From Ktedonobacterales bacterium (GTDB lineage Bacteria; Chloroflexota; Ktedonobacteria; Ktedonobacterales; JADMIN01): a stretch of DNA of 32,000 nt. The position numbers were made by a program, and so were the translations under genes. The notes below the pieces were generated by a model. The model had not been told where the DNA came from, did not search any database, and saw nothing but the letters and a program-made list of their open reading frames with translations. Positions 3,742 to 28,956 of this stretch are shown here, piece by piece. Every line of letters starts with the position of its first letter. Position 1 is the stretch's first letter. The stretch covers positions 3,180,001-3,212,000 of the forward strand of contig CP126532.1 in assembly GCA_030167145.1 (NCBI GenBank), written 5' to 3'.

Positions 3742-4965
3742 CTACTTGAGTTGCGTCGCGCAGTAGGTGGTATTTGGACCATACGGGCTGGGACACGTGG
3801 TCGTCTGGGTGAACTGCAATGCCTGCCCGAAGTCTTTGACCATATCGGGATAGTCGCCGCCGTAGGTGTAATAGCCGCCCTGGTTCACGCTGAACCAGGG
3901 ATACCAGCAGAAGGGCGTGCCATAATTCGCCGCGCTGCAATACAGGTTGACCTCCGCCTCGCCGCCGTAATCGCTCACGGCATACCAGCTCTGCGGGCTG
4001 CTCCCATCGCCGAAGGTTACACTCGCGATCTGCAACGGATGGAAGCCCACCCACGTCGGCACGTTATAAGAGTAGCAGGGCGGCTTGGTGGCGCTCCCCG
4101 GCAAGCAGAACTGCCCCGCAGGCTGAGCGAAGTTGCTGGCGTGGCCAATTTCCCAAACGAACGCATTCGGCGCATCATCCACCAGCCCCCAGTTCAGCGC
4201 GTTGCCGATCTTCTGGACGCTATACGCTGGCATCAACGGCCCATCCACCTTGCTGTTGAGGACGATGGTTCCTGAATGGCCGGTCGTCACATCGGTGACG
4301 GTGATGTGCATGCCATCCTGGGCCGGGGTGATGTACTGGTGGTCAGTCATGGTATCGCCCGCATGCAACACCAGCGGTCCGCCGGTGGCGCTATCGGTCA
4401 GCATCGCGTTGAATGCCGCGGATTCAGAATTGCCGTGCTGCGAGACTTCCCACACCGGAGAGCATGCCGTATATACACCAGGCGCATAACTCACGTTGTA
4501 GCCGCCACCGCTGGCACAATTGCTGACCATCGCGTTCGGGTAAAATTGCAGCTCCAGGAACGCCTGCCCGCCCAGGCTATTCGGGTCGTTTACGACGCCG
4601 CCGATCCAGAAGGTCGGGCCGACGCTATCCACGGCGGTCGTGCCATCGCTCGGTAGCGCCACCGTCCAGGTAAGATTTTGCGCGGACCCCGGATGATTCG
4701 AGACCGGGTCAAGCTCAGGCTCATCATGGCCCGTGCAACTTGACGTATACCAGACGAACTCCTGCGGATGATGCCCAATGCAGAGCGATTGCCCCTGGTT
4801 GTTGCTGCTCGCGCGCTGCGCGCCAGCATGCGCGACCTGCGTAGATGCGCGAACGATGCCGCCTACCGCCAGGGCAATCACCAGAATCCCACCCACGCTG
4901 ATGGCGAGTGCGCGCTGATGGAATGTGCGCATATGCTCCCTTTCTTCTGCGTCATGAGCAAACAT
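3742..4965 (-). CDS. Secreted or membrane-anchored protein of unknown function, rich in Cys and aromatic residues
   Basis: This 407-aa ORF has strong high-GC third-position bias. It has one N-terminal hydrophobic helix (LAISVGGILVIALAVGGIV). An alternative start at 4932 (MRTFHQ...) is preceded by AAGGGAG. I recognise no family. It lies between two secreted peptidase genes on the same strand. Confidence 0.7.
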   Translation of the reverse strand: MFAHDAEEREHMRTFHQRALAISVGGILVIALAVGGIVRASTQVAHAGAQRASSNNQGQSLCIGHHPQEFVWYTSSCTGHDEPELDPVSNHPGSAQNLTWTVALPSDGTTAVDSVGPTFWIGGVVNDPNSLGGQAFLELQFYPNAMVSNCASGGGYNVSYAPGVYTACSPVWEVSQHGNSESAAFNAMLTDSATGGPLVLHAGDTMTDHQYITPAQDGMHITVTDVTTGHSGTIVLNSKVDGPLMPAYSVQKIGNALNWGLVDDAPNAFVWEIGHASNFAQPAGQFCLPGSATKPPCYSYNVPTWVGFHPLQIASVTFGDGSSPQSWYAVSDYGGEAEVNLYCSAANYGTPFCWYPWFSVNQGGYYTYGGDYPDMVKDFGQALQFTQTTTCPSPYGPNTTYCATQLK

Positions 4966-12173: not shown

Positions 12174-13826
12174 ATGGCGACTCTCTGGCCCACCGGTGGC
12201 GCAAGCGAGCCAACCCGCGCTTCTGATGCCCTGCGCCGCGCCCTAGCGCATGCCGTCATCCTCGCCGATGCCGGCGCAGGCGCCCTGGCCCTGCGCGACA
12301 ACGGCGAAAATGGCGAAAGCGACCCGCTTACCGCGCGCCGCAACAAAGATGGGCTGCTCATCACATCCGGAATCGAACGGCCCCAGGCGGCGCAGATGAT
12401 GCGTGTCCTCGCCGAAGACCTCACCCCGCGTCCACTCGATGGACGCCCGCGCGTGATTGTCAACAGCGAGCTATGGGGCGGCGAGATTGCCTCGCTGGTG
12501 CTTGGCGACCTGAGCGGTCCCGCAGGCGAATTGCATCTGCTCGGCCCCACCGGCTTCAGCGCACAGCGCGCCCTCACCGAACCGCGCCGCCGCCAGGCGC
12601 TGATCGGCGAACTGACCGCCGCCGTGCGCCTCTATCAGGAAGCCTCGCGCCTGCGCCAGGAGAACCGCCAGCTTAGCTCCATCCTCCATTTCAGCGGCGA
12701 CGGCATCATCACCCTCGACGCCGCGCTGCGCATCACCGGCTTCAACCCGGCGATGGAAGTCATGACCGCCTGGCGCCAGCACGAAGTCATCGGGCGCTTC
12801 TATCAGGATGTGTTGCTGCCGCGCGACCTTCAGGGCAACCCACTCAGCTATCAAAACGATCCTGTCGTTCGCACCATCGAGATGGGCAAAGCGACCGTCA
12901 ACCACGAGCTAATTCTCCTGGCGCGCGATGGCGAGCGCGTCTATGTCTCCGTCACCGCCGCCGTCGTGCGCGCCGCGCAGGGCCAGCCAGTGAGTTGCGT
13001 CCTCAACGTGCGCGACATCACCCGCTCCCGCGAATCCGAAGAACTGCGCAACACCTTCGTCTCCGTCGTCTCGCACGAACTGCAAACGCCTATTGCCATC
13101 ATCAAGGGCTATGCCTCCACCCTGGCCCGCGAAGATGCCCACTGGGACACCGCGACCCTCCGCGCTCGCCTCCAGGCCATCGAAGAAGAATCCGACCGGC
13201 TCAACCATCTGCTCGGCAACATGCTCTACGCCTCGCGCATCTCGGCTGGCGGCCTCACCATGGAGCGCACCGACCTCGATCTGGCCGAAGTCACCCGCTC
13301 CGTCGTCCGCCGCTTCAAGGCGCGCAGTCCTGACCGCGACATCAACGTCCGGCTCCCGGCACAGGTGCCGCTGGTGCTGGCCGACCGCGAGCGCATCGAA
13401 GAAGTGCTGCTGAACCTGCTCGATAATGCGGTAAAATATTCGCCGAAGGGGCAGAGTATTCGCGTGCGCGGCTCCGTCACCGCCGACGACGTAATTCTCA
13501 GCGTCGCCGACAGCGGCGAGGGCATCCCCGCACGTGAGCAAGAGCGCGTCTTCGAGCGGTTCCAGCGCGTGGACAACTCCACCGCCCGGCGTACCCAGGG
13601 CGCGGGGCTTGGCCTCTACATCTGCCGCGCCATCGTTGAGGCCCACGGCGGGCGCATCTGGGTCCGCAGCACGCTGGGGCGCGGCTCCACCTTCTCGTTC
13701 AGCCTCCCGCGCGAGGAAAAGCCGCAAGCTCCCATGGTCATCTTCGGCGGCCACGACCGCGCCTATACGCAGCGACAACCACAGCAACAGCAGCAAGAGG
13801 AACCCGATGGAGCAACAACACGTTGA
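12174..13826 (+). CDS. Soluble sensor histidine kinase (N-terminal sensory region, PAS, HisKA, HATPase_c)
   Basis: The PAS-like segment reads [33 protein letters not shown]. The H-box is [19 protein letters not shown], the N-box is [13 protein letters not shown], and the G-boxes are DSGEGIP and [22 protein letters not shown]. There is no hydrophobic TM segment. I prefer the ATG at 12174 over the GTG at 12117, which lies inside the repeat. Confidence 0.85.
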
Positions 13827-14550
13827 CCCGCGCAGCATCACCGTGCTGGTCGTGGATGATGAACCGCGACTGGTAGACGTCGTGCGCATGAACCTGGAAG
13901 TCGAAGGCTATCGCGTCGTCGAGGCCGCTAACGGCTACCAGGCGCTGGACCGCCTCAAAGACGACCTGCCCGACCTCGTCATCCTCGACGTGATGATGCC
14001 CGAACTCGATGGCTTCGACACACTGCGCCGCATCCGCGAGGTCTCCAGCGTCCCCGTCATCATGCTCACCGTCCGCCAGGAAGAATCGGACCGCATTCGC
14101 GGCCTCGAAATCGGCGCCGACGACTATCTCACCAAAGCGCCCTTCAGCCCGCGCGAGCTGCAATCCCGCGTGCGCGCCCTGCTCCGCCGCACCTTCACCC
14201 CGTCCCCCGCCCGCAAAACCAGCATCGTCGTAGATAAAGACCTGACCATTGATTTCAACAAGGGCGAGGTCTGGGTGCGTGGCGAAAAAGTCGCCCTGCG
14301 TCCCACCGAATATAAGCTGCTCTACCATCTCGTCAACAACGCCGGACGACTCCTCACCCACGACACCCTGCTCTCCAAAGTCTGGGGACCAGAGTACCGC
14401 GACGAATCCCACTATCTGCGCCTCTACATCACCTACCTGCGCCAAAAGCTCGAACGCGACCCCGCGCACCCCAAATACATCCTCACCGAGCGCGGTCGTG
14501 GCTACCGCTTCCGCGAGCTAGAGCCAGCCGAAGCGCCCGTAGCGAATTGA
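13807..14550 (+). CDS. OmpR/KdpE-type response regulator (receiver plus winged helix)
   Basis: The ATG at 13807 overlaps the kinase stop by 20 nt. The receiver reads [10 protein letters not shown]...[13 protein letters not shown]...VIMLTV...[14 protein letters not shown]. The C-terminal [33 protein letters not shown] closely resembles KdpE. The upstream part of the track ORF (from 13534) is the kinase read in another frame. Confidence 0.9.
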
Positions 14551-19342: not shown

Positions 19343-20353
19343 ATGAGCCAGCGCGTCCCATCTGAAGAGCGACCCCCCGCGCGGCCCGACCCCATCCAAC
19401 CGTCCACCGCGCGCATCGTAGACGCGGCCCCCGCGCCGTCGCACGGCTTGCTGCTCGCAACCTATCTCTGGCTCTGCCACCCTATACGCCTGCTCCTGGT
19501 GGTCGCGCCGGTCCTCCTCACGCTCGAACTGCTCTGGGCCAGTGGCCTGCGGCTGCTGCCGATCCCCGCCGCCTCCACACTGCTCGCTGCGGTCCTGGCG
19601 CTCGCGGGCGGCTCCCTGCTCGACGAATATCTCGCCTTCGAGCGCGCCGCCGCGCATGGGCGCACCAATGAACCAGGACTCAGCCATCTCCCTGGCGCCC
19701 GCATGGCCACCTCGCCGGTCTATACCCTGACCGTCCTGCGGCTGAGCATCAGCCTGCTGGCGCTGGGCGCGCTGGCAGGCATTCCCTCCGCGCTCAGTGG
19801 TGGTGTCTGGACCATCATCCTGGGTGTCGGCGCGCTGCTGCTGGCCTTCCTCTATTCCGCCACCAGCTACGCCTGGAAGCGCCTGCCCGCCAGCGCCGTC
19901 ATCGTCGCCCTCGCGCTTGGCCCCGGCCTCGTATTTGCCACCACCCTTGCCCAACATCAGCCTATCTCCTGGCCCATCCTCACCCTTGGCCTCGCCCTGG
20001 GCTGCGCCGCGCTCACCTGCGCCCAGGCGCACGTGCTCGCCTCCGCCGCTGCCACCACCACCGCCTCCAGGCGTGCCGGGCGCATCCTCTGCGCACTCGC
20101 CTTGGTGGGGGCATACGCTTTCGCCGTCATCCTCGCCAGCTTCTGGGGCATCTTCACCGGCGCTGTCGCCGCATTCCTCTCGCTCCCCGCCGCCGTGCTG
20201 GCCCTCACCGGCATCATGCGAGCGCAGTCGCCAATCGTCCGCGCGCTCGCCCTCCGCCAGATGACCCGCGCCTACCTGCTCTACGCGCTCTGGCTCTTCA
20301 CCGGCATCCTCGCCGCATACCTCATCATCCGCTTTGCTCACGCGCTGGCCTAG
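19343..20353 (+). CDS. Polytopic integral membrane protein (8-9 TM), function unknown
   Basis: An AAGGAGG SD lies 10 nt upstream. Hydrophobic helices run throughout. There is a loose resemblance to UbiA/MenA topology (LLLAFLYSATSYAWKRLP...ALGPG), but I could not find the Asp-rich motifs. Confidence 0.7.
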   Translation: MSQRVPSEERPPARPDPIQPSTARIVDAAPAPSHGLLLATYLWLCHPIRLLLVVAPVLLTLELLWASGLRLLPIPAASTLLAAVLALAGGSLLDEYLAFERAAAHGRTNEPGLSHLPGARMATSPVYTLTVLRLSISLLALGALAGIPSALSGGVWTIILGVGALLLAFLYSATSYAWKRLPASAVIVALALGPGLVFATTLAQHQPISWPILTLGLALGCAALTCAQAHVLASAAATTTASRRAGRILCALALVGAYAFAVILASFWGIFTGAVAAFLSLPAAVLALTGIMRAQSPIVRALALRQMTRAYLLYALWLFTGILAAYLIIRFAHALA

Positions 20354-20417
20354 ACTCGTCAGCGCCGCCCGTCGCCTCCGCCCCGCGCAGGGAGAGAGGC
20401 GACGCGCGCATACGCCG

Positions 20418-21986
20418 CTATGCCTGCGGCTTCAGCCCATACACCTCCGCGAACTTGGCGTTCAGATAGGCGCCGAAATACTTCGGATCCGGCGCTTCCC
20501 CGGTGACGCGCGTCATCAGTTCATTGGCCTGATACGTCGCCCCCGAAGCATACATGCGCTCGCGCAGCCAGTTCAGCACGAACGCCGTATCCCCGCTCGC
20601 CAGCCGCGCATCGAAGTCCGGGAAATCCCGGCGCAGCGTCGTATAGATCTGCGCGCCATACAGATTGCCCAGCGTATACGTCGGGAAGTAACCGAATCCG
20701 CTGGTCCAGTGGATATCCTGCATCACCCCCTCGGCATCGGTTGCTGGCTCAATCCCCAGGTACTCGCGGTACTTCGCGTTCCACAGCCTGGGCAACTCCT
20801 CCACCGAGATCGAGCCATCCACCAGCCCCTTCTCCAGCTCGAAGCGGATGATGATATGGAGGTTATATGTCACCTCATCGGCCTCAACTCGAATCAGGCT
20901 CGGCTGCACCTTGTTCAGCGCTCGCCAGAATGTCGTCACATCCACCGAACCCATCTGCTCCGGGAATGCCTGCTGCACCAGGCCGTAGTGCGCCTGCCAG
21001 AACGCCTGCGAGCGCCCAATGGCGTTCTCCCATAGCCGCGACTGCGACTCATGCGCCCCCAGCGACGCACCCCCCGCCAGCAGCGTCCGCGCCAGCGCGG
21101 GCGCGCTGCCCTGTTCGTAGACCGCATGGCCGCCTTCATGGATCGCCGCCATCAACGCCGCCTGTACGAAATGCTCGTCCGGGCGCACCGTCACGCGCAC
21201 ATCGAATGGCGAGCCAAAGCTCGTCGTGAACGGATGCGGCGAGATTGCGATGCCACCGCGATTGAAGTCATAGCCCATCGCCCGCAGCACCGTATCAGAG
21301 AGCGCCACCTGTTTGTCGCGCGGAAACTCGCCCTTCAGGCAGGTGTCATCTACCGACGCGCCTTCGCTCTGGATGCGCCGTAGCAGCGCGACGCTCACAT
21401 CACGCACACCAGCGAAGAGTGTATCCAGCCGGCTCGCCGTCATCCCCGGCTCATAGAGATCCAGCAACGCATCATAGCGCAATTCCTTGTAGCCGTACCG
21501 ATCCGCCACTTCGCGCTGCAATGCCACCACCTTGGTCAACCACGGCGCAAAGCTGGCAAAGTCGTTCTGCTCTTTTGCGCGCCGCCACGCCTCGAATGCG
21601 CCCGCCTCAACCCGCGCCATCTCCTCCACCAATTCGCGCGGCAGCTTGGTCGCATGGTCATAGGTGCGTTTCGCCTCGCGCACCAACCCTCGGTCGGCGT
21701 CGCTGAATGTCGCGCTTGCCACCGGCTCCGCCAGCCCATCCAGCAGCGCGCCCAGGCGTGGATCGGTCGCGCGGTCGTGCAGCACGCCCTGCAATGTCGC
21801 GAGTTGCTGCCCGCGTACTTCACCCGCGCCATCTGGCAGCGCGGTATTCTGGTCCCAGGCCGCCAGCGCGCCCAGCGCGCCCAGGTCTGCCAGCTCATGC
21901 ATCCGTCTAAGCAGCTCGCCGATCCGTTCATCGCTTCTCGTGAAGTCGAGGCCAGCAGTCTGAGAGGCATTCGTGGCATCCGCCAT
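20418..21986 (-). CDS. M32-family metallocarboxypeptidase (Taq-type)
   Basis: 522 aa. It has the zinc motif HEGGHAVYEQG (HExxH) together with HPFTTSFG, DIHWTSGFGYFPTYTLGN and IRVEADEVTYNLHIIIRFELE. Confidence 0.9.
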   Translation of the reverse strand: MADATNASQTAGLDFTRSDERIGELLRRMHELADLGALGALAAWDQNTALPDGAGEVRGQQLATLQGVLHDRATDPRLGALLDGLAEPVASATFSDADRGLVREAKRTYDHATKLPRELVEEMARVEAGAFEAWRRAKEQNDFASFAPWLTKVVALQREVADRYGYKELRYDALLDLYEPGMTASRLDTLFAGVRDVSVALLRRIQSEGASVDDTCLKGEFPRDKQVALSDTVLRAMGYDFNRGGIAISPHPFTTSFGSPFDVRVTVRPDEHFVQAALMAAIHEGGHAVYEQGSAPALARTLLAGGASLGAHESQSRLWENAIGRSQAFWQAHYGLVQQAFPEQMGSVDVTTFWRALNKVQPSLIRVEADEVTYNLHIIIRFELEKGLVDGSISVEELPRLWNAKYREYLGIEPATDAEGVMQDIHWTSGFGYFPTYTLGNLYGAQIYTTLRRDFPDFDARLASGDTAFVLNWLRERMYASGATYQANELMTRVTGEAPDPKYFGAYLNAKFAEVYGLKPQA

Positions 21987-22159
21987 GCGGTTCTTCCCTT
22001 CTTCGCAATCTCTGGACTCCGCGGCGCCGATGCCGCGCTTTAGAGCATAGCATGCGCCTGTAGCATACGTCAGGAAGAAAACCGCGACACTTTCGACTAT
22101 TTTACCCGTACATCAGGGCTATCAGGCTAGGCACGTTCAGGAAGCCATGCGTTATACTT

Positions 22160-22215
22160 GCCGCATCAGATCTGCTCGGCGTCAGGCGGCTCCCAGAGGT
22201 CGCATCTGATGCGGC
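22160..22215. repeat. Perfect 12-bp inverted repeat (long hairpin) in the divergent region between the carboxypeptidase and the receiver gene
   Basis: GCCGCATCAGAT (22160-22171) pairs with ATCTGATGCGGC (22204-22215), separated by a 32-nt spacer. Confidence 0.55.
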
Positions 22216-22417
22216 GTCGAGTGGACTAGAGGCGTTGCTGGCTCACCGCGAGTGGGGAACGGCTTGCCGGCTAGCGTTCTTGGAGTGCGAATGAATTGGA
22301 CGAGGTAGACACGTAATCCGCGTCCCACTCACAGAGGTTGACACGTGGCCGTGAAGCGGAGGTAGGGTAGCGACGTATCCGCCAGACAGCGTGTCGGCTA
22401 GCGAGGTAGGTTGGCTT

Positions 22418-22864
22418 GTGACAGGGGAAAGCATCATCCAAGTACTGATCGTGGATGACGATCCCGGCATTCGGCAGACGCTGTGCGCCGTGATGGAAGA
22501 CGAAGGATACACTGCCCTGGAGGCAGCGGACGGTGCGATTGCGCTCGCGCTGCTCCGCGGCAACTCGCATCCCGTCGTCGTAGTGCTCGACTTACTCATG
22601 CCATTGTATTCGGGCGAATTCGTATTGCAAGCCGTGGTGAACGATCACCACCTCTCAACCCGGCATGCCTACATGATGCTTACCGCGCAGCCGAACTGCA
22701 TCACCCCGGCCTGTGCGACCTATATCGCTCAGCTCGACATGCCGATTATTCAAAAGCCCTTTGAGCTAGACGCTCTGCTCGACGCCGTGACACGCGCTGC
22801 CTGTCGCCTGGCCGCACGCCACGGACTCGACGGCGCAACTCGTTCATCGCATTCATCTTTGTAG
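22418..22864 (+). CDS. Stand-alone CheY-like receiver protein with no output domain
   Basis: It has IQVLIVDDDPGIRQ (acidic pair), VVVLDLLMP (phospho-acceptor Asp), MMLTAQ (Thr) and IIQKPF (Lys). I prefer the GTG at 22418, with GAGGTAGG 7 nt upstream, over the track start at 22391. Confidence 0.8.
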   Translation: MTGESIIQVLIVDDDPGIRQTLCAVMEDEGYTALEAADGAIALALLRGNSHPVVVVLDLLMPLYSGEFVLQAVVNDHHLSTRHAYMMLTAQPNCITPACATYIAQLDMPIIQKPFELDALLDAVTRAACRLAARHGLDGATRSSHSSL

Positions 22865-22900
22865 TATCAGTTTCTCGCACCCACGTTATTCTTCTCCATG

Positions 22901-22935
22901 GGCCGCGCCACTCATCGGTGCGGCCTATTCATTTG
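22901..22935 (+). terminator. Candidate terminator after the receiver gene
   Basis: GGCCGCGCC-actcatc-GGTGCGGCC forms a 9-bp stem with one G-U pair and is followed by TATTCATTTG. Confidence 0.4.
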
Positions 22936-23136
22936 GCGCGCTGCCAGACGCAACCTCCTCTTGTGATCGACACCTTCAAGACTATCCTTCCGCATCGCTT
23001 CCCGCGCAGGGCAACAGCACTCGATTCGCCACTGCTCGTTGTAGCTTTCCCCTCCTAGAGCGGGTCGCAGACAGGCAAAACAAACAGAGCCTCCCCCGAC
23101 TCGTAATGCTTACCACCGTCTTAGTAAACTATGAGT

Positions 23137-23146
23137 CGTTCCCACT
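23137..23146 (+). repeat. Copy 1 of the recurring 10-mer CGTTCCCACT
   Basis: This is an exact 10-mer in the same orientation as the copies at 23389 and 23939. Confidence 0.6.
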
Positions 23147-23388
23147 TTGTGGCTCTCATGCTGAGCAGTGACTGACACAAGTAACGACACGCAAGTGCTC
23201 AATAAAATGTCACAAAACGAGTTGGCCTATATTTACACAGTGCCACCGAGATTCAGGTTTCTCCCAGGCATCCATATCCCACGAATTCGATAGGTTATTC
23301 AAACACTTGTCACTCATGCGCTCGCGAGAGCTACACCGACTCATCTTTGCATTTTACGTCAACGTTAGATTATTTCACTTCACCCTTA

Positions 23389-23398
23389 CGTTCCCACT
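23389..23398 (+). repeat. Copy 2 of the recurring 10-mer CGTTCCCACT
   Basis: This is an exact 10-mer. ATTTCACT lies just upstream, and the same 8-mer lies just downstream of copy 3. Confidence 0.6.
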
Positions 23399-23503
23399 TT
23401 TTCCTAATGCGCTCCACACTCGGCTGCCCAAATCGCAGAATAAGTCAAACGTAGCCAATTTGTAATGTTATGCCTTTGATTGGAAATCTGTCATCTTCAA
23501 GAC

Positions 23504-23533
23504 TTGACACTGTATCAAAAGTAGCATTATATT
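23504..23533 (+). promoter_or_regulatory. Near-consensus sigma-70-type promoter inside the GC-poor region
   Basis: The sequence is TTGACA (23504-23509)-N18-TATATT (23528-23533). The -35 is perfect and the -10 matches 5 of 6. No annotated gene begins within about 700 nt downstream on this strand. Confidence 0.45.
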
Positions 23534-23938
23534 AGTTCTTAGTATACCAATAGGGGGACTGCATGTAAACCAGTAACCTGGCATGAAGTAGCAAGGAGCT
23601 GCGGGTTATCTTGAAAGTCTGTTCGCCACTTGTAACATGGCGGCTACCCCATGCAAGTCGTTCTGCTATGGGGCGACTTGGCGTACCCGCAATTTTTCCA
23701 GACGGTTCGGAGTGCGTGTTCACGCTCCGCGCTCCGGCGCATGTAATTCTTCCAATCCACCAGCCGACAGGCGGATCTAACCCTTTTTCGCCGCAGCATT
23801 CAGCGCATTGGAGGAACCTTTCACGCGACATTCCTCTTCGTCACCCGCCTCATGGGACTCCGAATGCGCTCTCCTTCCTCACGACCCAGAGCACGAGTGA
23901 TCGGCTCTGGGCTAATCATTTTTTCGCGTCCTCGTATG

Positions 23939-23948
23939 CGTTCCCACT
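23939..23948 (+). repeat. Copy 3 of the recurring 10-mer CGTTCCCACT
   Basis: This is an exact 10-mer. The extended form GCGTTCCCACTCA (23938-23950) matches GCGTCCCACTCA at 22320-22331, upstream of the receiver gene, except for one T. Confidence 0.6.
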
Positions 23949-24189
23949 CATTTCACTGCTGATGAGCGGCCAGTGGCGTCATGCCGGAAAGGAGGCATGA
24001 TGCTATGTAGGCCGATTCAGAGCCGTCTCCGGCATCGGTGCGCAGTTGCATCTGACCTCCCGTAGCTGGACGGCATTCTACATGCGTGTGAGCGGTGGTA
24101 CGGAAAATGCCGCACTCACATAGTTGTGTAAAGTAGTGCACTGTAAATTCACAGAGGTAATGCATAGGGGGCAAACCATGCCCGTCACA

Positions 24190-24226
24190 ATGTAGATGTA
24201 AAAGTAGAATGCTGCTACATCTACAT
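24190..24226. promoter_or_regulatory. Perfect 11-bp inverted repeat (candidate operator or leader hairpin) just upstream of the XRE-TPR gene
   Basis: ATGTAGATGTA (24190-24200) pairs with TACATCTACAT (24216-24226) across a 15-nt spacer. It ends 25 nt before the ATG at 24252. Confidence 0.5.
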
Positions 24227-24251
24227 GTCAGATAAGCCAAGAAGGTAGATC

Positions 24252-25652
24252 ATGACTGACGAACAGGCTGCGATTCACGAAAACCTGATCCGCGAGACAC
24301 CGGCGATGCGCCTGGGTTTGCGTCTGCGGCGGGCTAGATTAGCGCGCAATTTAACACAGGGAGAGGTTGCTAAAAACCTCTTCTCAGTGAGCTATGTCTC
24401 CGCTGTAGAAAGGGGGCAGATTAGGCCATCTCTTGGGGCTTTAGAAAAGCTAGCAGAGAGATTAAATGTCCCGGTCACAGAACTGCTCGGCAATGGCGAT
24501 CTCTCTGGCTATGTGGATACCACTCCTTCCGCTGCGCGCGAAGCCGCTCAGGACCGCGCACGCGAAGAAGTGGAGAACCGCATCCGCGAGGCGCAAAAGC
24601 TCATTCGCCAGGGAACCTCCCGCTCCGTCGGACAGGCCATTGATCTGCTCCTACGCCTCGCTGGCCAGCAGCTCACCCAGCGCGAACTCGCGCGTCTCGA
24701 ATGGCTCCTTGCGCAGTCCTACTACGCGCAAGGTAGAGGCGAGGATGCACGTCGCGCCGCGCAGGATGGCCTGGCAATCACCGACCGCTTGGGCGATACC
24801 GACCTCACCGAAAGATTGCGCTTTGAACTGGGCAATGCCCTTGCCCTGTTGGGCAATCCCGCACTCGCTCAGGATCAATACAAGCGAAACCTGCATGCCA
24901 TCGATCAAGGCTACATGCCTGACATCGCATTTCAGATCGGCGTGCTCTCCAACTATGGCAACCTGCTCTGGCAGATGGGCGATCACGAGGAGGCTCACCA
25001 GTTTCTTGCCCGTGCGGTGCAACTCTCCAGGGAAATGCTCAACCTGGAGCGCATTGCCGAGATTTACTGGGCGCTTGCTCAAACCCAGGCCAACCGTGGC
25101 AACAATGCCGAAGCCCGGCAGTATGCCTACAAGAGCATTGCTGCTTATGAGGAGGTTGCCAACCGCAGGCTCGTCGCTGGCGTGTACCAGTTGCTTGGCC
25201 GCACCTACACAGAATCCGGCAACGCCGCTGAGGCCGTCGCCAATCTGCGTATGGCCAGCGAAATTGCCTCCGCCCAGCAGGACGCCCGCAGCTTCGCCGA
25301 ATCACAGCGCGCGCTCTCTGCGGCGCTCCTAGGCGACCGGCGCCTCGATGAAGCCGCCTCCGCCGCTGAGCAGGCCGTTCAACAGGCGGTCGAGCTTGAC
25401 GATGCTCTTCAGCATGCGGAATCTCTGCTCATGCTGGCACGGGTGCGCGAGGAGCAGGGGCGCAAAGAGGACGCCGAGCGTGGCTTCTCCGAAGCCATCG
25501 AACTGCTCAAGGCGCACGATGCTGGCGAGGCCCTCGGTGAGGCCTACGCCGAGTTTTCAAAGTTTCTCGAACGGCGCGGCGACAGCAAACGCGCCTTCGA
25601 AATGCTCAAAGCTGCCTACAGCGCCTCCACGCCGACGGGCGCGAAGATCTAA
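24252..25652 (+). CDS. XRE-family HTH transcriptional regulator with a C-terminal TPR domain
   Basis: The Cro/C1-type HTH reads LGLRLRRARLARNLTQGEVAKNLFSVSYVSAVERGQIRPSLGALEKLAERLNVPVTELL. About 350 aa of repeated helical A-x-x-Y/L-x-x-A motifs follow (YYAQGRGEDARR, LGNALALLGNPALAQDQYKRNL, YGNLLWQMGDHEEAHQFLARAV, and others). Confidence 0.88.
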   Translation: MTDEQAAIHENLIRETPAMRLGLRLRRARLARNLTQGEVAKNLFSVSYVSAVERGQIRPSLGALEKLAERLNVPVTELLGNGDLSGYVDTTPSAAREAAQDRAREEVENRIREAQKLIRQGTSRSVGQAIDLLLRLAGQQLTQRELARLEWLLAQSYYAQGRGEDARRAAQDGLAITDRLGDTDLTERLRFELGNALALLGNPALAQDQYKRNLHAIDQGYMPDIAFQIGVLSNYGNLLWQMGDHEEAHQFLARAVQLSREMLNLERIAEIYWALAQTQANRGNNAEARQYAYKSIAAYEEVANRRLVAGVYQLLGRTYTESGNAAEAVANLRMASEIASAQQDARSFAESQRALSAALLGDRRLDEAASAAEQAVQQAVELDDALQHAESLLMLARVREEQGRKEDAERGFSEAIELLKAHDAGEALGEAYAEFSKFLERRGDSKRAFEMLKAAYSASTPTGAKI

Positions 25653-25689
25653 TCTCGCGTTCTTCGCTCGCCCTGATGGCAGAGGCCAC

Positions 25690-25737
25690 ACCGCCGTTGC
25701 TCCGATTCCAACCCGGCGCATACGGCGGTTCTTTGTA
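25690..25737 (+). terminator. Candidate terminator after the XRE-TPR gene
   Basis: ACCGCCGT (25690-25697) pairs with ACGGCGGT (25722-25729) around an imperfect interior, and is followed by TCTTTGT. Confidence 0.4.
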
Positions 25738-25956
25738 CCATCCACCCTGTTCAGTGCCCGCGTCCGCCTGCTGCCACACCCTACTCCCCTTCGCCCTCCC
25801 GCTGTAGCCGCTTATGCGCCGGTAAAAAAGGGGGGCCTCGTGCGTTATATAGCGTGAAATGTGAGAAGATACCTGAGAGCAGCGCGCCTTCGGGCGCGTA
25901 CTCTTGTCGGCGGCGACATCAGTCCGCCGCTCCTCAGACAAGACAAGGAGTATGGG

Positions 25957-28956
25957 ATGCGGTTGGATGTAGCGCGACGTGGTGGCGCTGGCAAACACGC
26001 CTCACGCGGGTCACAGGGGACGCAGCAGGCTCCGAACGGCTCATGGCAATCTCGTCCCGCCGGACCCCTCTCCGCCGCTCGTCTCGCCGCGCTTCGGCTC
26101 GCGCGTGGCTGGCGGCTGTTGCTCGCCGTCGGCATCGGCATTCTCGTCGCCGTTGTGCTCGTCTGCACTGTCCCACTCTACATAAGCCTTGTCAGCAACG
26201 TGCAACTTCAGCGCGCCATCCACGCCAGCGCACCCTCCGCCCGCAACATCCAGGCGACCGCCGACAGCGACAACGCCAGCGCCACCCAGCGCGACGCCGC
26301 CAACGCCACCGTTACCTCCCTGGCGCAACGCTACCTGTCCAGTTTCACCACCGCCACTCCCACCCACTATCTCATCTCAGATAACCTGCTGCTCTTTGCA
26401 GTCGGCGCCCAAAAGTTCGATCCCAGCGATCCTCGCGCCCGCCAGGTGACCTACGAAGCCTTCGACTACACCGCTGCCGCGTCCCACATGCGCTTCATCG
26501 CTGGCGGCGCGCCACAATCGGTGGCAGGCGGCGCACCCCAGGCCATCGTCACCAAAGAGATGGCCGACGCCTTTCATATGACTGTCGGCACATCCCTCAC
26601 CGTCATTCAATTTGGCGACCACTCCATTAACTCTACGGTCAAGGTCTCCGGCATCTGGCAACCTGTGGACGCCGCCGATCCCTATTGGAATGGCCTCGAT
26701 TTCAGTGTGGCGAACGCCACCAATCCCTCGTACCCCGTCCTCATCACCTATGATAGCTTCTTCTCCGAGCTAACCCCCTTCACCGGCACGGCCATGCATC
26801 AGGATTGGATTTATTACACCCGCCCCGACGCTATCACCACTGGCAACATGAATGCCGTCGCCAGCGACATCGGCGCCTTCCGTGCGCGAATGAACGGCGA
26901 CGTGCTGGCCGTCCAGGGCATCGGCGCCGTCAACACCCAGTCCACCCTCGACCAGACCATCAGCGACATCCAGGCACAGCAGGCATTGCTGGCGTTGCCG
27001 CTCTACGTGATAATTGCCCAAATTGTTGGGCTTGCCCTGCTCTTCGTCGCCGCCATGTCCGCTCTCTTGGTTGAGGGTCAAAATCAAGAAATCGCCACGC
27101 TCAAGAGCCGCGGAGCAAGCGGCTCGCAACTGCTCAGCACCTTCACCACCCAGGGCGTCGTCCTCTCGCTGCTCGCCGCTATCGCTGGCCCGTTCCTCGC
27201 GGGCATTCTTGCCCTCTGGCTGATTCGCAAATTCGTCGCCGCCAGTGTGCTTCAGGGGTCCGGCATCAGTTCAACCTACCTCACGCAGCTTGCCAGCCCA
27301 ACCGCTGTGCTGCTGCCCGCCCTCGTCGGCGCATTGCTCGGCCTCATCACTGTCACCGTCACCGCCTGGCAATCGGCGCGGATGGACGTGCTCGCCTTCC
27401 GCCGCGAGCAAGGGCGCAGCACCCGTGTTCCCTTCTGGCGGCGCTATTATCTCGACCTCGCCTTGGTAGTACTCTTCCTCGCGGGCTACCTGGAACTGAA
27501 CCAGTTCGGTGGCACCAGCACTCGCCAGCAGCTTGGCGGCGGCGGCAACACTCCGCTGCTGCTCATCACACCCGCACTGCTGCTTCTCGCCGGCTCGTTG
27601 CTCGTGCTGCGCGTGCTGCCCCTGGGCGCGCAGTTCGGCGCGCGGGTGGCCGCACGTGGCAGAGGGTTGACCTCATTGCTGGCCTTCGCCCAGGTCGAGC
27701 GCAATCCCGCGCGCTACAGCCGCATGACGCTGCTGCTCGTGCTGGCCGTCGGCCTTGGCCTCTTCGCCCTCACCTTCGACGCCTCCCTCACCCGTAACGT
27801 CCACGACCGCTCTGCCTACAGCGTCGGCGCGGACATGCGCGTCGTCGAAGCGACTGGACTTGGCAACGGCAAGGGCCAGACGATGGCCCAGAATATCGCG
27901 CTTCTCCCTGGTGTGCAAGCGGTCTCACCCGCTCTGCGCACCAGCGCCACCACCACCTCCGACCTTGGAAATAACGCGGTGGATCTGCTCGCCATTGACC
28001 CCACCACCTTTGGCCAACCGGGCGCGGTCAGTTGGCGGCACGACTACGCCGCCGCCTCGCTCGATAGCCTGCTCAGTGGGCTGCGCGCCCACGCTCTTGC
28101 CGCGCCGGTTGGCCCCGGCACACCTGAATGGGCGATCATCAGCGATGTCTTCGCCGCGCAGTACCATCTCACTACCGGCGACCAGTTCACCCTTAGCCTG
28201 ACCGATGCGTCATCAGCGGCGGCGTCGTTCACCGTTGGCGCTATCGTCCATGAATTTCCCACGCTCTATCCGCAGGGCCAGCCCGGCAGTTTCATCGTCG
28301 TCGGCCTGAACGACTACGTGAGTTCAGTCAAGGCTCTCACCGACACCAAGGCCGACACTAGCAAGCTCGGACCAAACGAGTTCTGGCTGCGCACCACCAG
28401 CGACCCCGCCGCGCAGCAAAAACTGCTCCGCCAGCTTGCCGCGCCAGCGTTCCGCGCACAGCAGACGCTGAGCCTCAGCCAGGCCATCGAAGACGGCATC
28501 GCCAACCCCGTTTCCGCTGGTATGCGTGGCCTCCTGCTCGTCGGTGCCATCACCGCCGCATTGCTTGCCGTCCTCGGCAGCCTGATCCAGTCCATCCTGG
28601 CCACCCGCCAGCGTGCGCGTCAGTTTGCCGTCCTCCGCACCGTGGGTATGTCGGGCCGCCAGTTGACCGGCCTGCTGCTGGGCGAGCAGATCGTCGTCTA
28701 TCTCTTCGGCCTCGTCGGCGGCACGCTCCTTGGTCTCCTGTTGACCACCGCCACCCTGCCATTCCTGCAGTTCAGCGACACCACCATAGACCCCAGCACG
28801 CTCGGCATACCGGCTTACGTGCTGACCTTCAACGGCCAAACCGTCGCCTATTTCTACGCATCGCTGCTGGCCGCCTTCGTGTTCGCGCTGCTCATTGCCG
28901 CGCGCTACGCGACCGGCATCGGCCTGGGCAAGACACTCCGGCTTGGCGAAGACTAA
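25957..28956 (+). CDS. Large ABC transporter permease with two FtsX-type domains (MacB/DevC-like architecture)
   Basis: An AAGGAG SD lies 6 nt before the ATG at 25957. The track ORF starts 96 nt earlier. The 999-aa product has two blocks of 4 TM helices, each preceded by a large extracytoplasmic domain. The FtsX-like segments are EIATLKSRGASGSQLLSTF and FAVLRTVGMSGRQLTGLLLGEQ. Confidence 0.88.
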   Translation: MRLDVARRGGAGKHASRGSQGTQQAPNGSWQSRPAGPLSAARLAALRLARGWRLLLAVGIGILVAVVLVCTVPLYISLVSNVQLQRAIHASAPSARNIQATADSDNASATQRDAANATVTSLAQRYLSSFTTATPTHYLISDNLLLFAVGAQKFDPSDPRARQVTYEAFDYTAAASHMRFIAGGAPQSVAGGAPQAIVTKEMADAFHMTVGTSLTVIQFGDHSINSTVKVSGIWQPVDAADPYWNGLDFSVANATNPSYPVLITYDSFFSELTPFTGTAMHQDWIYYTRPDAITTGNMNAVASDIGAFRARMNGDVLAVQGIGAVNTQSTLDQTISDIQAQQALLALPLYVIIAQIVGLALLFVAAMSALLVEGQNQEIATLKSRGASGSQLLSTFTTQGVVLSLLAAIAGPFLAGILALWLIRKFVAASVLQGSGISSTYLTQLASPTAVLLPALVGALLGLITVTVTAWQSARMDVLAFRREQGRSTRVPFWRRYYLDLALVVLFLAGYLELNQFGGTSTRQQLGGGGNTPLLLITPALLLLAGSLLVLRVLPLGAQFGARVAARGRGLTSLLAFAQVERNPARYSRMTLLLVLAVGLGLFALTFDASLTRNVHDRSAYSVGADMRVVEATGLGNGKGQTMAQNIALLPGVQAVSPALRTSATTTSDLGNNAVDLLAIDPTTFGQPGAVSWRHDYAAASLDSLLSGLRAHALAAPVGPGTPEWAIISDVFAAQYHLTTGDQFTLSLTDASSAAASFTVGAIVHEFPTLYPQGQPGSFIVVGLNDYVSSVKALTDTKADTSKLGPNEFWLRTTSDPAAQQKLLRQLAAPAFRAQQTLSLSQAIEDGIANPVSAGMRGLLLVGAITAALLAVLGSLIQSILATRQRARQFAVLRTVGMSGRQLTGLLLGEQIVVYLFGLVGGTLLGLLLTTATLPFLQFSDTTIDPSTLGIPAYVLTFNGQTVAYFYASLLAAFVFALLIAARYATGIGLGKTLRLGED

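Follow-up and report, generated by a model that had tools for sequence, protein, structure and literature searches.

The gap between the receiver gene and the XRE-TPR gene covered positions 22865 to 24251 (1.39 kb) of the window, by which we mean the whole 32-kb stretch of DNA that was analysed. It extended from the receiver stop codon (TAG, 22862 to 22864) to the ATG of the XRE-TPR gene at 24252 and contained no credible open reading frame. The ribosome-binding site GAAGG and the start codon of the XRE-TPR gene (24241 to 24254, plus strand) were read directly from the sequence, and the gene was called identically in 2 assemblies. Its product contained HTH_3/HTH_31, TPR_12, and TPR_MalT domains according to precomputed Pfam annotations, and an ABC/FtsX unit is located behind it. 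It was also noted that some of the XRE-TPR homologs have been named NprR by JGI. No genes were called in the gap in L001 and L002, which share an identical contig and both hold this sequence, nor in L078, a close relative that is about 93% identical.

The gap coincided with a break in synteny, in that distantly related orthologs of the receiver gene were followed by a GT87 gene, whereas distantly related orthologs of the XRE-TPR gene were preceded by SUI1. The XRE-TPR regulator was apparently present as a single copy in each of the fetched Ktedonobacterales loci, with a conserved neighborhood of its own, and a search of the genome contigs with the XRE-TPR protein returned only irrelevant Microbispora HTH matches.

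A previous reading of this DNA, made from the sequence only, had described a gene-free and GC-poor stretch at 22865 to 24251, and this description was borne out, as were its coordinates and hand counts. The G+C counts of 20 of 60 nt for 23461 to 23520 and 22 of 60 nt for 23341 to 23400 were exact, and the 3 open reading frames of at least 95 codons were located where they had been placed (23532 to 23831 on the minus strand, 23611 to 24000 on the plus strand, and 23953 to 24240 on the minus strand). The flanking genes, for which a G+C content of two-thirds or more had been claimed, measured only 0.59 to 0.64. The GC content was 0.507 for the gap and 0.432 for its core at 23150 to 23600, with a minimum of 0.375 for a 200-nt window compared to a mean of 0.629 ± 0.054 for the 32 kb, in which 200-nt windows below 0.50 were found only at 23031 to 23720 and 24031 to 24390. 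Since 3 other intergenic regions in the window stayed at 0.59 to 0.62, the drop exceeds what is expected of intergenic DNA.

The 10-mer CGTTCCCACT was present in 3 exact copies (23137 to 23146 on the plus strand, 23389 to 23398, and 23939 to 23948), all of them within the gap and none elsewhere in the window, as had been noted before, and L078 retained the first copy only. The several perfect inverted repeats were also confirmed; 6 repeats had arms of at least 7 nt, compared to 1.75 ± 1.28 in block shuffles, and a count of 6 was reached in 0 of 100 shuffles. We considered a replication origin at the gap and rejected this idea, as the cumulative GC skew across 20000 to 26900 showed only small wobbles and no clear switch of polarity there. 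CGTTCCCACT agreed at just 5 of 9 positions with the consensus sequence of the DnaA box.

Coding potential, known RNAs and foreign DNA

Four explanations had been put forward for the gap: unannotated small-protein genes, a decayed foreign insert, an extended regulatory region, and a non-coding RNA locus. Only the last 2, alone or in combination, stood up to the analyses, and they are supported by the conserved promoter, the promoter-to-hairpin unit, and the long leaders of the orthologs described below. The other 2 were not supported.

The ratio of non-synonymous to synonymous differences between the window and L078 was about 3:1 for every open reading frame in the gap, including those of at least 8 codons that are preceded by a Shine-Dalgarno sequence. 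The substitutions were evenly spread over the 3 codon phases, several of the reading frames gained stop codons in L078, and no GC3 periodicity was detected in the gap. The 2 strong Shine-Dalgarno sequences described previously are real, with GGAAAGGAGG at 23986 to 23995 as reported and AAGGAG at 23593 to 23598, one base off the earlier position, but no conserved reading frame was located behind either of them. Both motifs are strong and have a start codon at the right distance, and a 22-codon reading frame (23997 to 24065) follows GGAAAGGAGG. However, in L078 the second motif (AGGAGG) was followed by ATG TAA, so that the peptide is not conserved, and the 22-codon frame differed by 18 non-synonymous versus 3 synonymous changes plus indels. 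Likewise, a 129-codon frame differed by 37 versus 10 changes and gained a stop codon, with no codon periodicity in the substitutions.

A specific variant of the small-protein explanation is a signaling pro-peptide for the HTH-TPR regulator, encoded by the 22-codon frame or by a frame behind AAGGAG. The locus resembles the RRNPP systems (Rgg/SHP, PlcR/PapR, NprR/NprX) in that a regulator with HTH and TPR domains, as in peptide-sensing regulators, is located next to an ABC transporter and a seemingly empty region with strong Shine-Dalgarno motifs. Yet the gene for the pro-peptide, which defines these systems, was missing, given that no conserved small reading frame was found in L078 or shared among 40 orthologous upstream regions, and none had a match in the protein database. 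We therefore consider small-protein genes in the gap highly improbable.

No known RNA was identified in the gap. The whole window had no match to Rfam at gathering thresholds, and a permissive search of the gap (E ≤ 10) gave only 2 matches at the level of chance, with E-values of 3 and 5.8. A scan for tRNA and tmRNA genes returned nothing. The layout of leader-peptide attenuation was not found either, as the only short reading frame preceded by a Shine-Dalgarno sequence (23997 to 24065) is located downstream of the hairpin at 23885 to 23911, and the frames upstream of this hairpin evolve as non-coding DNA.

The low GC content, the synteny break, and an indel of 91 nt could all be taken as traces of a decayed foreign insert or the remnant of a pseudogene at a synteny junction. 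However, 10 six-frame segments of the gap gave no matches to Pfam, and 11 segments gave no matches in a search of 5.8 billion protein clusters. No similarity was detected to plasmid, phage, or IMG/VR sequences, nor were any remnants of SUI1, GT87, or the neighboring hypothetical genes identified in the gap. With most of the gap also evolving slowly and no terminal inverted repeats at the indel, a decayed insert is hardly credible.

Conservation, promoters and hairpins

The divergence from L078 was 6.5% at 22865 to 23324 and 7.4% at 23541 to 23893, as compared to 12% to 24% at the fourfold degenerate sites of the flanking genes (11.8% to 15.9% for the receiver and M32 genes). Taken together, these 2 segments contained 56 substitutions in 813 aligned nt, whereas the fourfold sites had 30 substitutions in 211 for the receiver gene and the M32 gene combined (Fisher p = 0.0012) and 32 in 133 for the XRE-TPR gene (p = 2e-8). 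Most of the gap thus evolves 2 to 3 times more slowly than fourfold sites. The constraint is not peculiar to the gap, since the intergenic region at 21903 to 22417 was equally conserved, with a divergence of 5.6%.

The left part of the gap contains an intrinsic terminator of the receiver gene (22900 to 22935, plus strand), which consists of a GC-rich hairpin of 10 bp at 22900 to 22926 followed by AUUCAUUU. The 51-nt segment from 22900 to 22950, which includes a second small hairpin downstream, folded at −27.4 kcal/mol (z −3.8), and the stem of the terminator was identical in L078. It is followed by a conserved stretch without reading frames or assigned strand (22936 to 23503), in which the GC-poor core begins and the first 2 copies of CGTTCCCACT are located. 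The comparison with L078 revealed neither a structure signal nor a coding pattern for this stretch. Within it, a segment of 91 nt (23325 to 23415), with (T)CATGCGCTC/(T)AATGCGCTC as direct repeats at its borders, was missing in L078. The segment appears to be an indel of the slippage type and not a mobile element. A duplication or a MITE was considered and rejected, as the segment did not significantly resemble any other part of the gap and lacked terminal inverted repeats.

We searched for sigma-70-type promoters with a −35 box of TTGACA and a −10 box of TATAAT at a distance of 16 to 18 nt. The near-consensus promoter sequence TTGACA-N18-TATATT was confirmed at 23504 to 23533 on the plus strand, with 11 of 12 matching positions and a predicted start of transcription near 23540. 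The promoter in L078, TTGACA-N18-GATAAT, likewise matched at 11 of 12 positions, although 12 of the 37 positions from 23504 to 23540 had changed, with a hot spot of substitutions in the promoter spacer. Only 3 such plus-strand matches were identified in the 32 kb, each located upstream of a gene on the plus strand. The same architecture recurred in the orthologs; 21 of the 41 orthologous XRE-TPR loci contained a plus-strand match of at least 10 of 12 positions at −142 to −787, and the orthologous upstream regions (59.7 kb) contained 23 matches on the plus strand versus 9 on the minus strand.

A candidate promoter with an extended −10 box, TTTACA-N17-(TG)TATACT, was located on the opposite strand (23541 to 23569), with 10 of 12 matching positions. 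It faces the plus-strand promoter and falls within a block of 42 nt without substitutions (23541 to 23582), and it was also found in L078. A weak terminator-like site was found on the minus strand at 23102 to 23087, inside the stretch without reading frames, with a U-rich tail and a stem that was kept while the loop changed. A minus-strand non-coding RNA of about 450 nt could be transcribed from the candidate promoter leftward through the core to this site, with the 2 face-to-face promoters in competition, which would provide the left part of the gap with a role. Several features speak against this: the hairpin at 23102 to 23087 has 5 pairs only, the minus strand of 22945 to 23324 showed no structure signal (z −1.4), the 91-nt indel would lie midway along the putative RNA, and few minus-strand promoters were found at the equivalent place in the orthologs. 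The conserved block could just as well mark where the plus-strand transcript begins, and we regard a minus-strand RNA as distinctly unlikely.

On the plus strand, the segment from the predicted start to a terminator-like hairpin (23540 to 23924) would represent either the conserved 5′ domain of a leader or a candidate non-coding RNA of about 385 nt. Folding of the single sequences was no better than for shuffled sequences (z −1.5 and −0.7), whereas the consensus fold of the 2 sequences had a z-score of −3.06 on the plus strand and −2.04 on the minus strand in column shuffles. All 7 substitutions at the predicted pairs preserved the pairing, of which 1 was compensatory and 5 were one-sided but consistent, and no pair was broken; these counts are biased in that they are based on 2 sequences only and the consensus structure was selected on the same 2 sequences. 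The first of the Shine-Dalgarno-like motifs is located in the loop of a small hairpin, GUAGC-AAGGA-GCUGC (23588 to 23602, plus strand), with a z-score of −2.5 in the window and −3.3 in L078, where a U.G pair is replaced by U-A. In 3 lineages, the predicted transcript carried the AAGGAG motif at +45 to +53. A Csr/Rsm-like sponge was also considered and rejected, as a hand count gave about 7 GGA motifs in the 385 nt, against about 5 expected, and only 2 of these were located in hairpin loops.

The CCCAGAGC/GCTCTGGG hairpin and its T-run are located about 385 nt downstream of the promoter (23885 to 23924, plus strand). In the RNA, the hairpin reads CCCAGAGC-A-CGA GUGA UCG-GCUCUGGG and is followed by CUAAUCA and 6 U residues (23919 to 23924). 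The structure at 23885 to 23911 is stable and GC-rich, at −19.7 kcal/mol (z −3.7), and both 8-nt arms were identical in L078, in which the loop was replaced and the tail was CUGUUUCUUUAU. The U-run in the window begins 7 nt after the stem, which is not canonical, whereas the U-rich tail of L078 is interrupted and follows the stem at a distance of 2 nt; a standard scan for terminators did not report the hairpin.

The conservation relative to L078 stopped just past this hairpin. The next segment (23925 to 24175, no strand assigned) was hypervariable, with 39% to 57% mismatches plus indels and no match by blastn. It contains a strong hairpin at 23963 to 24019 (z −2.75), which presents GGAAAGGAGG in its loop, and the 22-codon upstream reading frame. 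Behind it is a hairpin or palindrome, ATGTAGATGTA-N15-TACATCTACAT (24190 to 24226, plus strand; z −4.9), at a distance of 26 nt from the XRE-TPR ATG. The corresponding sequence in L078, GTAGGTGT...ACACCTAC, had replaced A-T by G-C on both arms, a compensatory change, and L007 retained the hairpin and gained new pairs in the loop.

The GC-poor stretch may also act at the level of DNA only, by binding nucleoid-associated proteins or transcription factors at CGTTCCCACT and the palindromes, in which case the matches to promoters and terminators would be incidental and there would be no functional leader RNA. It is the window's only stretch below 0.50 GC, it is enriched in inverted repeats and contains the 3 exact copies of the 10-mer, and an overall RNA fold is weakly supported by thermodynamics. 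Against this, just 1 of the 3 copies was kept in L078, and the hairpins still paired after changes in the loop or on both arms, a pattern more in keeping with a structure than with a sequence contacted by proteins. The promoter also survived a substitution hot spot, and the orthologs showed a strong enrichment of near-consensus promoters at the equivalent position. A region that acts as DNA only is unlikely.

The unit from the promoter to the hairpin and U-run at 23885 to 23924 could instead be an independent gene for a trans-acting small RNA of about 385 nt, with the XRE-TPR gene transcribed from a proximal promoter of its own and 23925 to 24175 serving as a neutral spacer. This would be in line with the end of conservation right after the hairpin, since the next approximately 250 nt outpace fourfold sites as expected of a spacer without function, and the palindrome at 24190 to 24226 could be an operator at the proximal promoter. 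The L007 contig, which begins 76 nt before the start codon, is also compatible with it. However, no plus-strand promoter match of at least 9 of 12 positions was found between 23639 and 24251, and no homolog of the RNA was found at any other locus. Furthermore, the canonical terminator in the L021 leader is so close to the start codon (48 nt) that a separate promoter would not fit between them, which speaks for read-through in the gene family. An independent small-RNA gene is a possibility that we regard as rather unlikely.

Proposed leader architecture, orthologous loci and comparable systems

The explanation that we prefer, and to which we give about an even chance of being correct, is that the gap would be a non-coding 5′ control region with an unusually long leader of the XRE-TPR gene, and possibly also of the ABC/FtsX unit behind it. 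The receiver gene would end at its own terminator (22900 to 22935), followed by a GC-poor promoter island that holds the sigma-70-type promoter at 23504 to 23533, from which a plus-strand transcript may be launched at about 23540. The first approximately 385 nt of the transcript would be conserved and untranslated and end with the hairpin and U-run at 23885 to 23924, which may either stop most transcripts, giving a stand-alone small RNA, or let a regulated fraction pass, as in attenuation. Read-through would cross the fast-evolving segment of about 250 nt and the hairpin at 24190 to 24226 before it reaches the XRE-TPR ribosome-binding site, for a predicted leader of about 712 nt in total. The 2 Shine-Dalgarno-like motifs would start no gene and are more likely to be elements of the leader that bind ribosomes or proteins, comparable to 5′ stabilizer sequences.

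This reading builds on the lack of a coding signal, the conservation pattern, the conserved promoter and hairpin, and an architecture that recurs in the orthologs, while the predicted sites at which transcription would start and stop are matches to consensus sequences, and every regulatory consequence is conditional on them. The control-region model leaves out the left 560 nt (22936 to 23503) and the extreme drop in GC content.

At least 2 of the orthologs contained canonical terminators inside the leader, both of them very strong; one, in L021 (z −6.2), was separated from the start codon by 48 nt, and the other was located in L024 (z −5.8). In the lineage represented by L014 and L060, the leader was 86% to 98% identical, versus 70% to 84% for the DNA upstream of its promoter. 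Homology to the gap was searched for in 70 related loci with blastn, nhmmer, and six-frame peptides, and none was detected outside 2 close strains. Only the anchored TTGAC could be aligned in leaders across lineages, with no deep conservation of the RNA, and the 5′-proximal alignment around AGCAAGGAG was too weak for modeling. An analysis of k-mer enrichment before the start codon gave no common motif, and the idea of a TGTAG motif was dropped.

The proposed leader resembles long leaders with an internal intrinsic terminator, which act by attenuation or give rise to small RNAs when transcription terminates prematurely, in that a promoter on the same strand is followed by several hundred untranslated nt, a GC-rich hairpin with a U-run, and then the regulated gene, and in that this architecture recurs with canonical terminators in L021 and L024. 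It differs from them in that no Rfam riboswitch, T-box, or leader-peptide arrangement was matched, the sole upstream reading frame is located downstream of the hairpin, and the U-run follows the stem only after 7 nt.

Regulatory regions may switch between close strains, such that intergenic alleles are non-homologous, as described in studies of Escherichia coli. Similarly, an unalignable segment was located just upstream of the same gene both in the window compared to L078 and in L052 compared to L056, between flanks of 90% to 100% identity. Here, however, the window and L078 still shared some anchors in the same order, and no donor sequence was found. Because the anchors persist, rapid neutral divergence with indels is as likely as replacement.

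The motifs without genes recall the STAB-SD of the cry3A gene in Bacillus thuringiensis, which is transcribed with a long leader from a promoter located 558 nt upstream; a Shine-Dalgarno-like sequence there starts no translation, but binds the 30S subunit and blocks 5′-to-3′ decay by RNase J1 (PMC4113751). In a similar manner, GGAAAGGAGG and AAGGAG are located in a putative leader of 712 nt with no conserved reading frame behind them, and AAGGAG recurs in 3 lineages. The differences are that the phylum here is Chloroflexota, that one motif is placed in a hairpin loop, and that a 22-codon reading frame is located behind the second motif in this strain.

A broader and rather doubtful proposal is that the XRE-TPR regulators of the Ktedonobacterales share an RNA control module that varies between lineages while its function is conserved. 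In such a module, a strong promoter would be followed by an untranslated leader of 200 to 750 nt, in which a Shine-Dalgarno-like sequence some 50 nt from the 5′ end would bind ribosomes as a decoy. The module would also include a conditional terminator and, ahead of the ribosome-binding site, a cassette that switches rapidly, and the first 385 nt of the leader studied here might also accumulate as an undescribed small RNA.

The Ktedonobacteria are mycelial, spore-forming Chloroflexota, and our search found no literature on gene regulation or transcription in this group. The preferred reading introduces no new principle, as long leaders, attenuators, and Shine-Dalgarno-like stabilizers are well known elsewhere. 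If it is correct, a large stretch that seems empty would be constrained regulatory DNA and not missed genes or junk, which would be useful for annotation, and the XRE-TPR regulator, which is widespread in the order, would provide a concrete and testable case of control at the level of RNA.

A GC-poor, non-coding gap upstream of the XRE-TPR gene

The gap at positions 22865 to 24251, which separates the stop codon of the receiver gene (22864) from the start codon of the XRE-TPR gene (24252), is a real feature that was described correctly, including its bounds, in the sequence-only reading. The G+C content was 0.507 in the gap, 0.432 in its core (23150 to 23600) and 0.375 in its lowest 200-nt segment, as compared to 0.629 +/- 0.054 in the window. 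The hand counts of 20 and 22 G+C in two 60-nt segments were reproduced by recounting; the flanking genes were less GC-rich than had been assumed (0.59 to 0.64). Segments of 200 nt with a G+C content below 0.50 were confined to 23031-23720 and 24031-24390 in the 32 kb. Since three other intergenic regions of the window had values of 0.59 to 0.62, the drop is more than a mere intergenic effect. The 10-mer CGTTCCCACT was present in three copies, all within the gap, and perfect inverted repeats were enriched (6 versus 1.75 expected); the three copies and several such repeats had been noticed in the earlier reading.

No gene was placed within the gap by the gene callers, and the GC periodicity by codon position that is seen in the receiver gene was absent. 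The three mutually overlapping ORFs (23532-23831, minus strand; 23611-24000, plus strand; 23953-24240, minus strand) were recovered, and the judgment that no ORF is convincing was borne out by the comparison with contig L078 from a close relative (about 93% identical), in which none evolved as a coding sequence. The comparison took in every SD-preceded gap ORF of at least 8 codons. Non-synonymous and synonymous substitutions occurred at a ratio of about 3:1, the substitutions were spread equally over the three codon phases, and several ORFs had gained stops or indels. Small proteins encoded in the gap are considered very improbable.

The Rfam scan proposed in the earlier reading gave no match in the whole window at the gathering thresholds, and with matches of E<=10 allowed, the gap gave just two, both at chance level. 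Genes for tRNA or tmRNA were not found either. The suggestion that the GC-poor gap could be the wreck of a known gene fared no better. No match was obtained in Pfam with ten six-frame segments or among 5.8 billion protein clusters with eleven concatenated segments, searches of plasmid, phage, and IMG/VR sequences gave nothing, and no remnants of SUI1, GT87 or neighboring genes were found in the gap. A decayed insert is thus an extremely improbable explanation.

Slow and fast segments in the comparison with a close relative

The gap-wide comparison was made with a single relative, L078, the only one to span the whole gap. Its receiver protein was 95% identical in amino acid sequence, the XRE-TPR protein 98% over the portion present on the contig, and the flanking DNA about 94% identical in nucleotide sequence. 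The gap itself was a mosaic of slow and fast segments, with divergence values of 6.5% at 22865-23324, 11% at 23416-23503, 32% at 23504-23540 and 7.4% at 23541-23893, followed by 39% to 57% mismatch and numerous indels at 23894-24251. Segment 23325-23415 was missing from L078 and was bounded by a direct repeat of 8-10 nt. The conserved parts evolved significantly more slowly (p=0.0012 and 2e-8) than fourfold-degenerate sites, which differed by 15.9% in the M32 peptidase gene upstream of the receiver gene, 11.8% in the receiver gene and 24% in the XRE-TPR gene.

The gap is non-coding and under constraint. This constraint is general to intergenic DNA here, because the spacer of 515 nt that separates the divergently oriented M32 and receiver genes (21903-22417) was likewise slow, with 5.6% divergence next to 12% to 16% at the fourfold sites of its neighbors. 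A role of the gap at the DNA level only is rated as quite unlikely. A 48-codon ORF called by JGI at 21897-22043 in this spacer may be spurious. In a third close strain (SRR31557555), the assembly broke at both edges of the gap: contig L083 ended 21 nt past the receiver stop and contig L007 began 76 nt before the XRE-TPR start, which suggests gap heterogeneity or low coverage.

Promoter matches, hairpins and a putative leader

A 10-bp GC-rich hairpin followed by AUUCAUUU at 22900-22935, conserved in L078, is the predicted terminator of the receiver gene. The promoter match TTGACA-N18-TATATT at 23504-23533 was confirmed, and is one of only three plus-strand matches of at least 10/12 in the whole window, each located upstream of a plus-strand gene; the leaders that they imply would measure about 45, 128, and 712 nt. 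In L078, one third of the positions around the match were altered; the -35 element was kept and the -10 element TATATT was changed to GATAAT, still giving 11/12. Facing this promoter, a minus-strand match (TTTACA-N17-TATACT, 23569-23541) was found within a 42-nt block without a single substitution relative to L078. The block may have been kept for its minus-strand promoter or, equally, because a plus-strand RNA has its 5' end there. A minus-strand RNA from the gap, which would be compatible with the other readings, is considered improbable. A further minus-strand match (TTGACG-N16-TATATT, 10/12) was located at 14336-14309, in antisense orientation inside the response-regulator gene at 13807-14550.

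A terminator-like hairpin at 23885-23911, CCCAGAGC(A)CGA-GUGA-UCGGCUCUGGG followed by CUAAUCA and U6, had a folding energy of -19.7 kcal/mol (z -3.7). Both arms were identical in L078, with a replaced loop and a U-rich tail, and alignability stopped just past it. A palindrome at 24190-24226 (z -4.9), 26 nt before the XRE-TPR start codon, had A-T changed to G-C on both arms in L078, and L007 contained a one-sided intermediate and new loop pairs. Single-sequence folding of 23540-23926 was no better than shuffles (z -1.5 and -0.7), whereas the two-sequence consensus fold was moderately better than mononucleotide column shuffles (z -3.06 plus, -2.04 minus). Pairing was kept at all 7 substitutions in the predicted pairs, one of which was compensatory; two sequences are too few to support a claim of structure.

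The SD-like motif GGAAAGGAGG was found at 23986-23995 as reported, and AAGGAG one base away from its reported position, at 23593-23598. The latter is located in the loop of a small hairpin (23588-23602) that was kept in L078 with a change from U.G to U-A. The former precedes a 22-codon ORF and also falls in a loop, that of a strong hairpin (23963-24019, z -2.75); its L078 counterpart is AGGAGG followed by ATG TAA. The motifs are most plausibly read as putative sites for ribosome or protein binding that do not initiate translation. The most similar known case is the STAB-SD element of cry3A, which lies in a leader of 558 nt, binds the 30S subunit and blocks RNase J1 (PMC4113751).

A long regulatory leader or a candidate non-coding RNA unit is the explanation that best fits the sequence features of the gap. 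The most economical reading, with about an even chance of being correct, is that it serves as the control region of the XRE-TPR gene. A strong promoter within the GC-poor island would start a long untranslated leader, the conserved first 385 nt or so of which would end at the hairpin and U-run. Transcription would either terminate there, yielding a small RNA, or read through, and the remainder would be free to vary, save for the hairpin beside the ribosome-binding site. The leader model accounts neither for the left 560 nt and the extreme GC drop nor for the three copies of the 10-mer and the hot spot of substitutions at the promoter. The main rival, in which the same parts form two units, an independent sRNA gene and a separate XRE-TPR promoter, is possible but unlikely.

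XRE-TPR upstream regions in the Ktedonobacterales

The window is part of a 5.07-Mb contig from a JGI metagenome, of which an identical Logan contig also exists, and its organism was placed in Ktedonobacterales (Chloroflexota) by the names of XRE-TPR protein homologs. The XRE-TPR gene was widespread in this order, with homologs of 40% to 58% identity. Among the homologs examined in their genomic context, the closest (loci L008, L009, and L011) had 840-1150 nt of gene-free DNA upstream, and a SUI1 gene on the far side of it. Among loci with recovered downstream DNA, an FtsX or ABC gene was located 3' of XRE-TPR in L008 and probably L011; L009 and L010 contained pyrimidine-biosynthesis genes there and no FtsX/ABC gene. 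Distant receiver orthologs retained the M32 neighbor and had a GT87 gene after 171 nt on the other side. In this lineage, the gap therefore marks a synteny junction at which the receiver gene was joined to the XRE-TPR upstream region.

Gene starts differed by source. The receiver start was GTG 22391 in the longest ORF (157 aa) and 22418 according to the gene callers (148 aa), and the receiver of one relative was called at 163 aa. The start of the FtsX-family permease was ambiguous (25653-26119), being placed at 26119 by JGI, 25957 by Logan and 25861 in the longest ORF; 25957 is an ATG after AAGGAG and is conserved in L007. Within the XRE-TPR to FtsX spacer, a CA-rich stretch was variable and differed from L007 by an indel.

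A metagenome scan and look-ups yielded 41 XRE-TPR upstream regions, and no alignment was obtained between the leaders of different lineages. In the lineage of L014 (3487-3988) and L060 (3317-3819), the predicted leader was 86% to 98% identical, the DNA upstream of its promoter 70% to 84%, and the final 100 nt or so before the start codon were invariant in five sequences. Very strong, canonical predicted terminators with 17-bp stems and a U-run were located on the sense strand between promoter and XRE-TPR start in L021 (3895-3944, z -6.2) and L024 (3753-3805, z -5.8). Only 48 nt separate the former from the start codon, implying that XRE-TPR would be expressed by read-through. In three lineages, AAGGAG was found between +45 and +53 of the predicted transcript, in two of them as AGCAAGGAG; its clustering in +35 to +65 (rough Poisson about 0.007, range chosen post hoc) is only suggestive. 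L052 and L056 (XRE-TPR starts at 3947 and 1026) were about 42% identical and nearly gapless over some 490 nt at -640 to -150, between flanks of 90% to 100%, a pattern suggestive of non-homologous cassettes that match in length (GC 0.49-0.53). Both segments had a 42-codon plus-strand ORF at the same position, its predicted product marked by a hydrophobic core, '..FIV..' and a charged tail.

Promoter hits in the 59.7 kb of upstream regions numbered 23 on the plus strand and 9 on the minus strand. In 21 of the 41 regions, a plus-strand match of at least 10/12 preceded the XRE-TPR start by 142-787 nt, and in the lineages nearest to the window its position was -391 to -519. Long leaders, as predicted from these matches, would therefore be a trait of the XRE-TPR family, and longest in this lineage.
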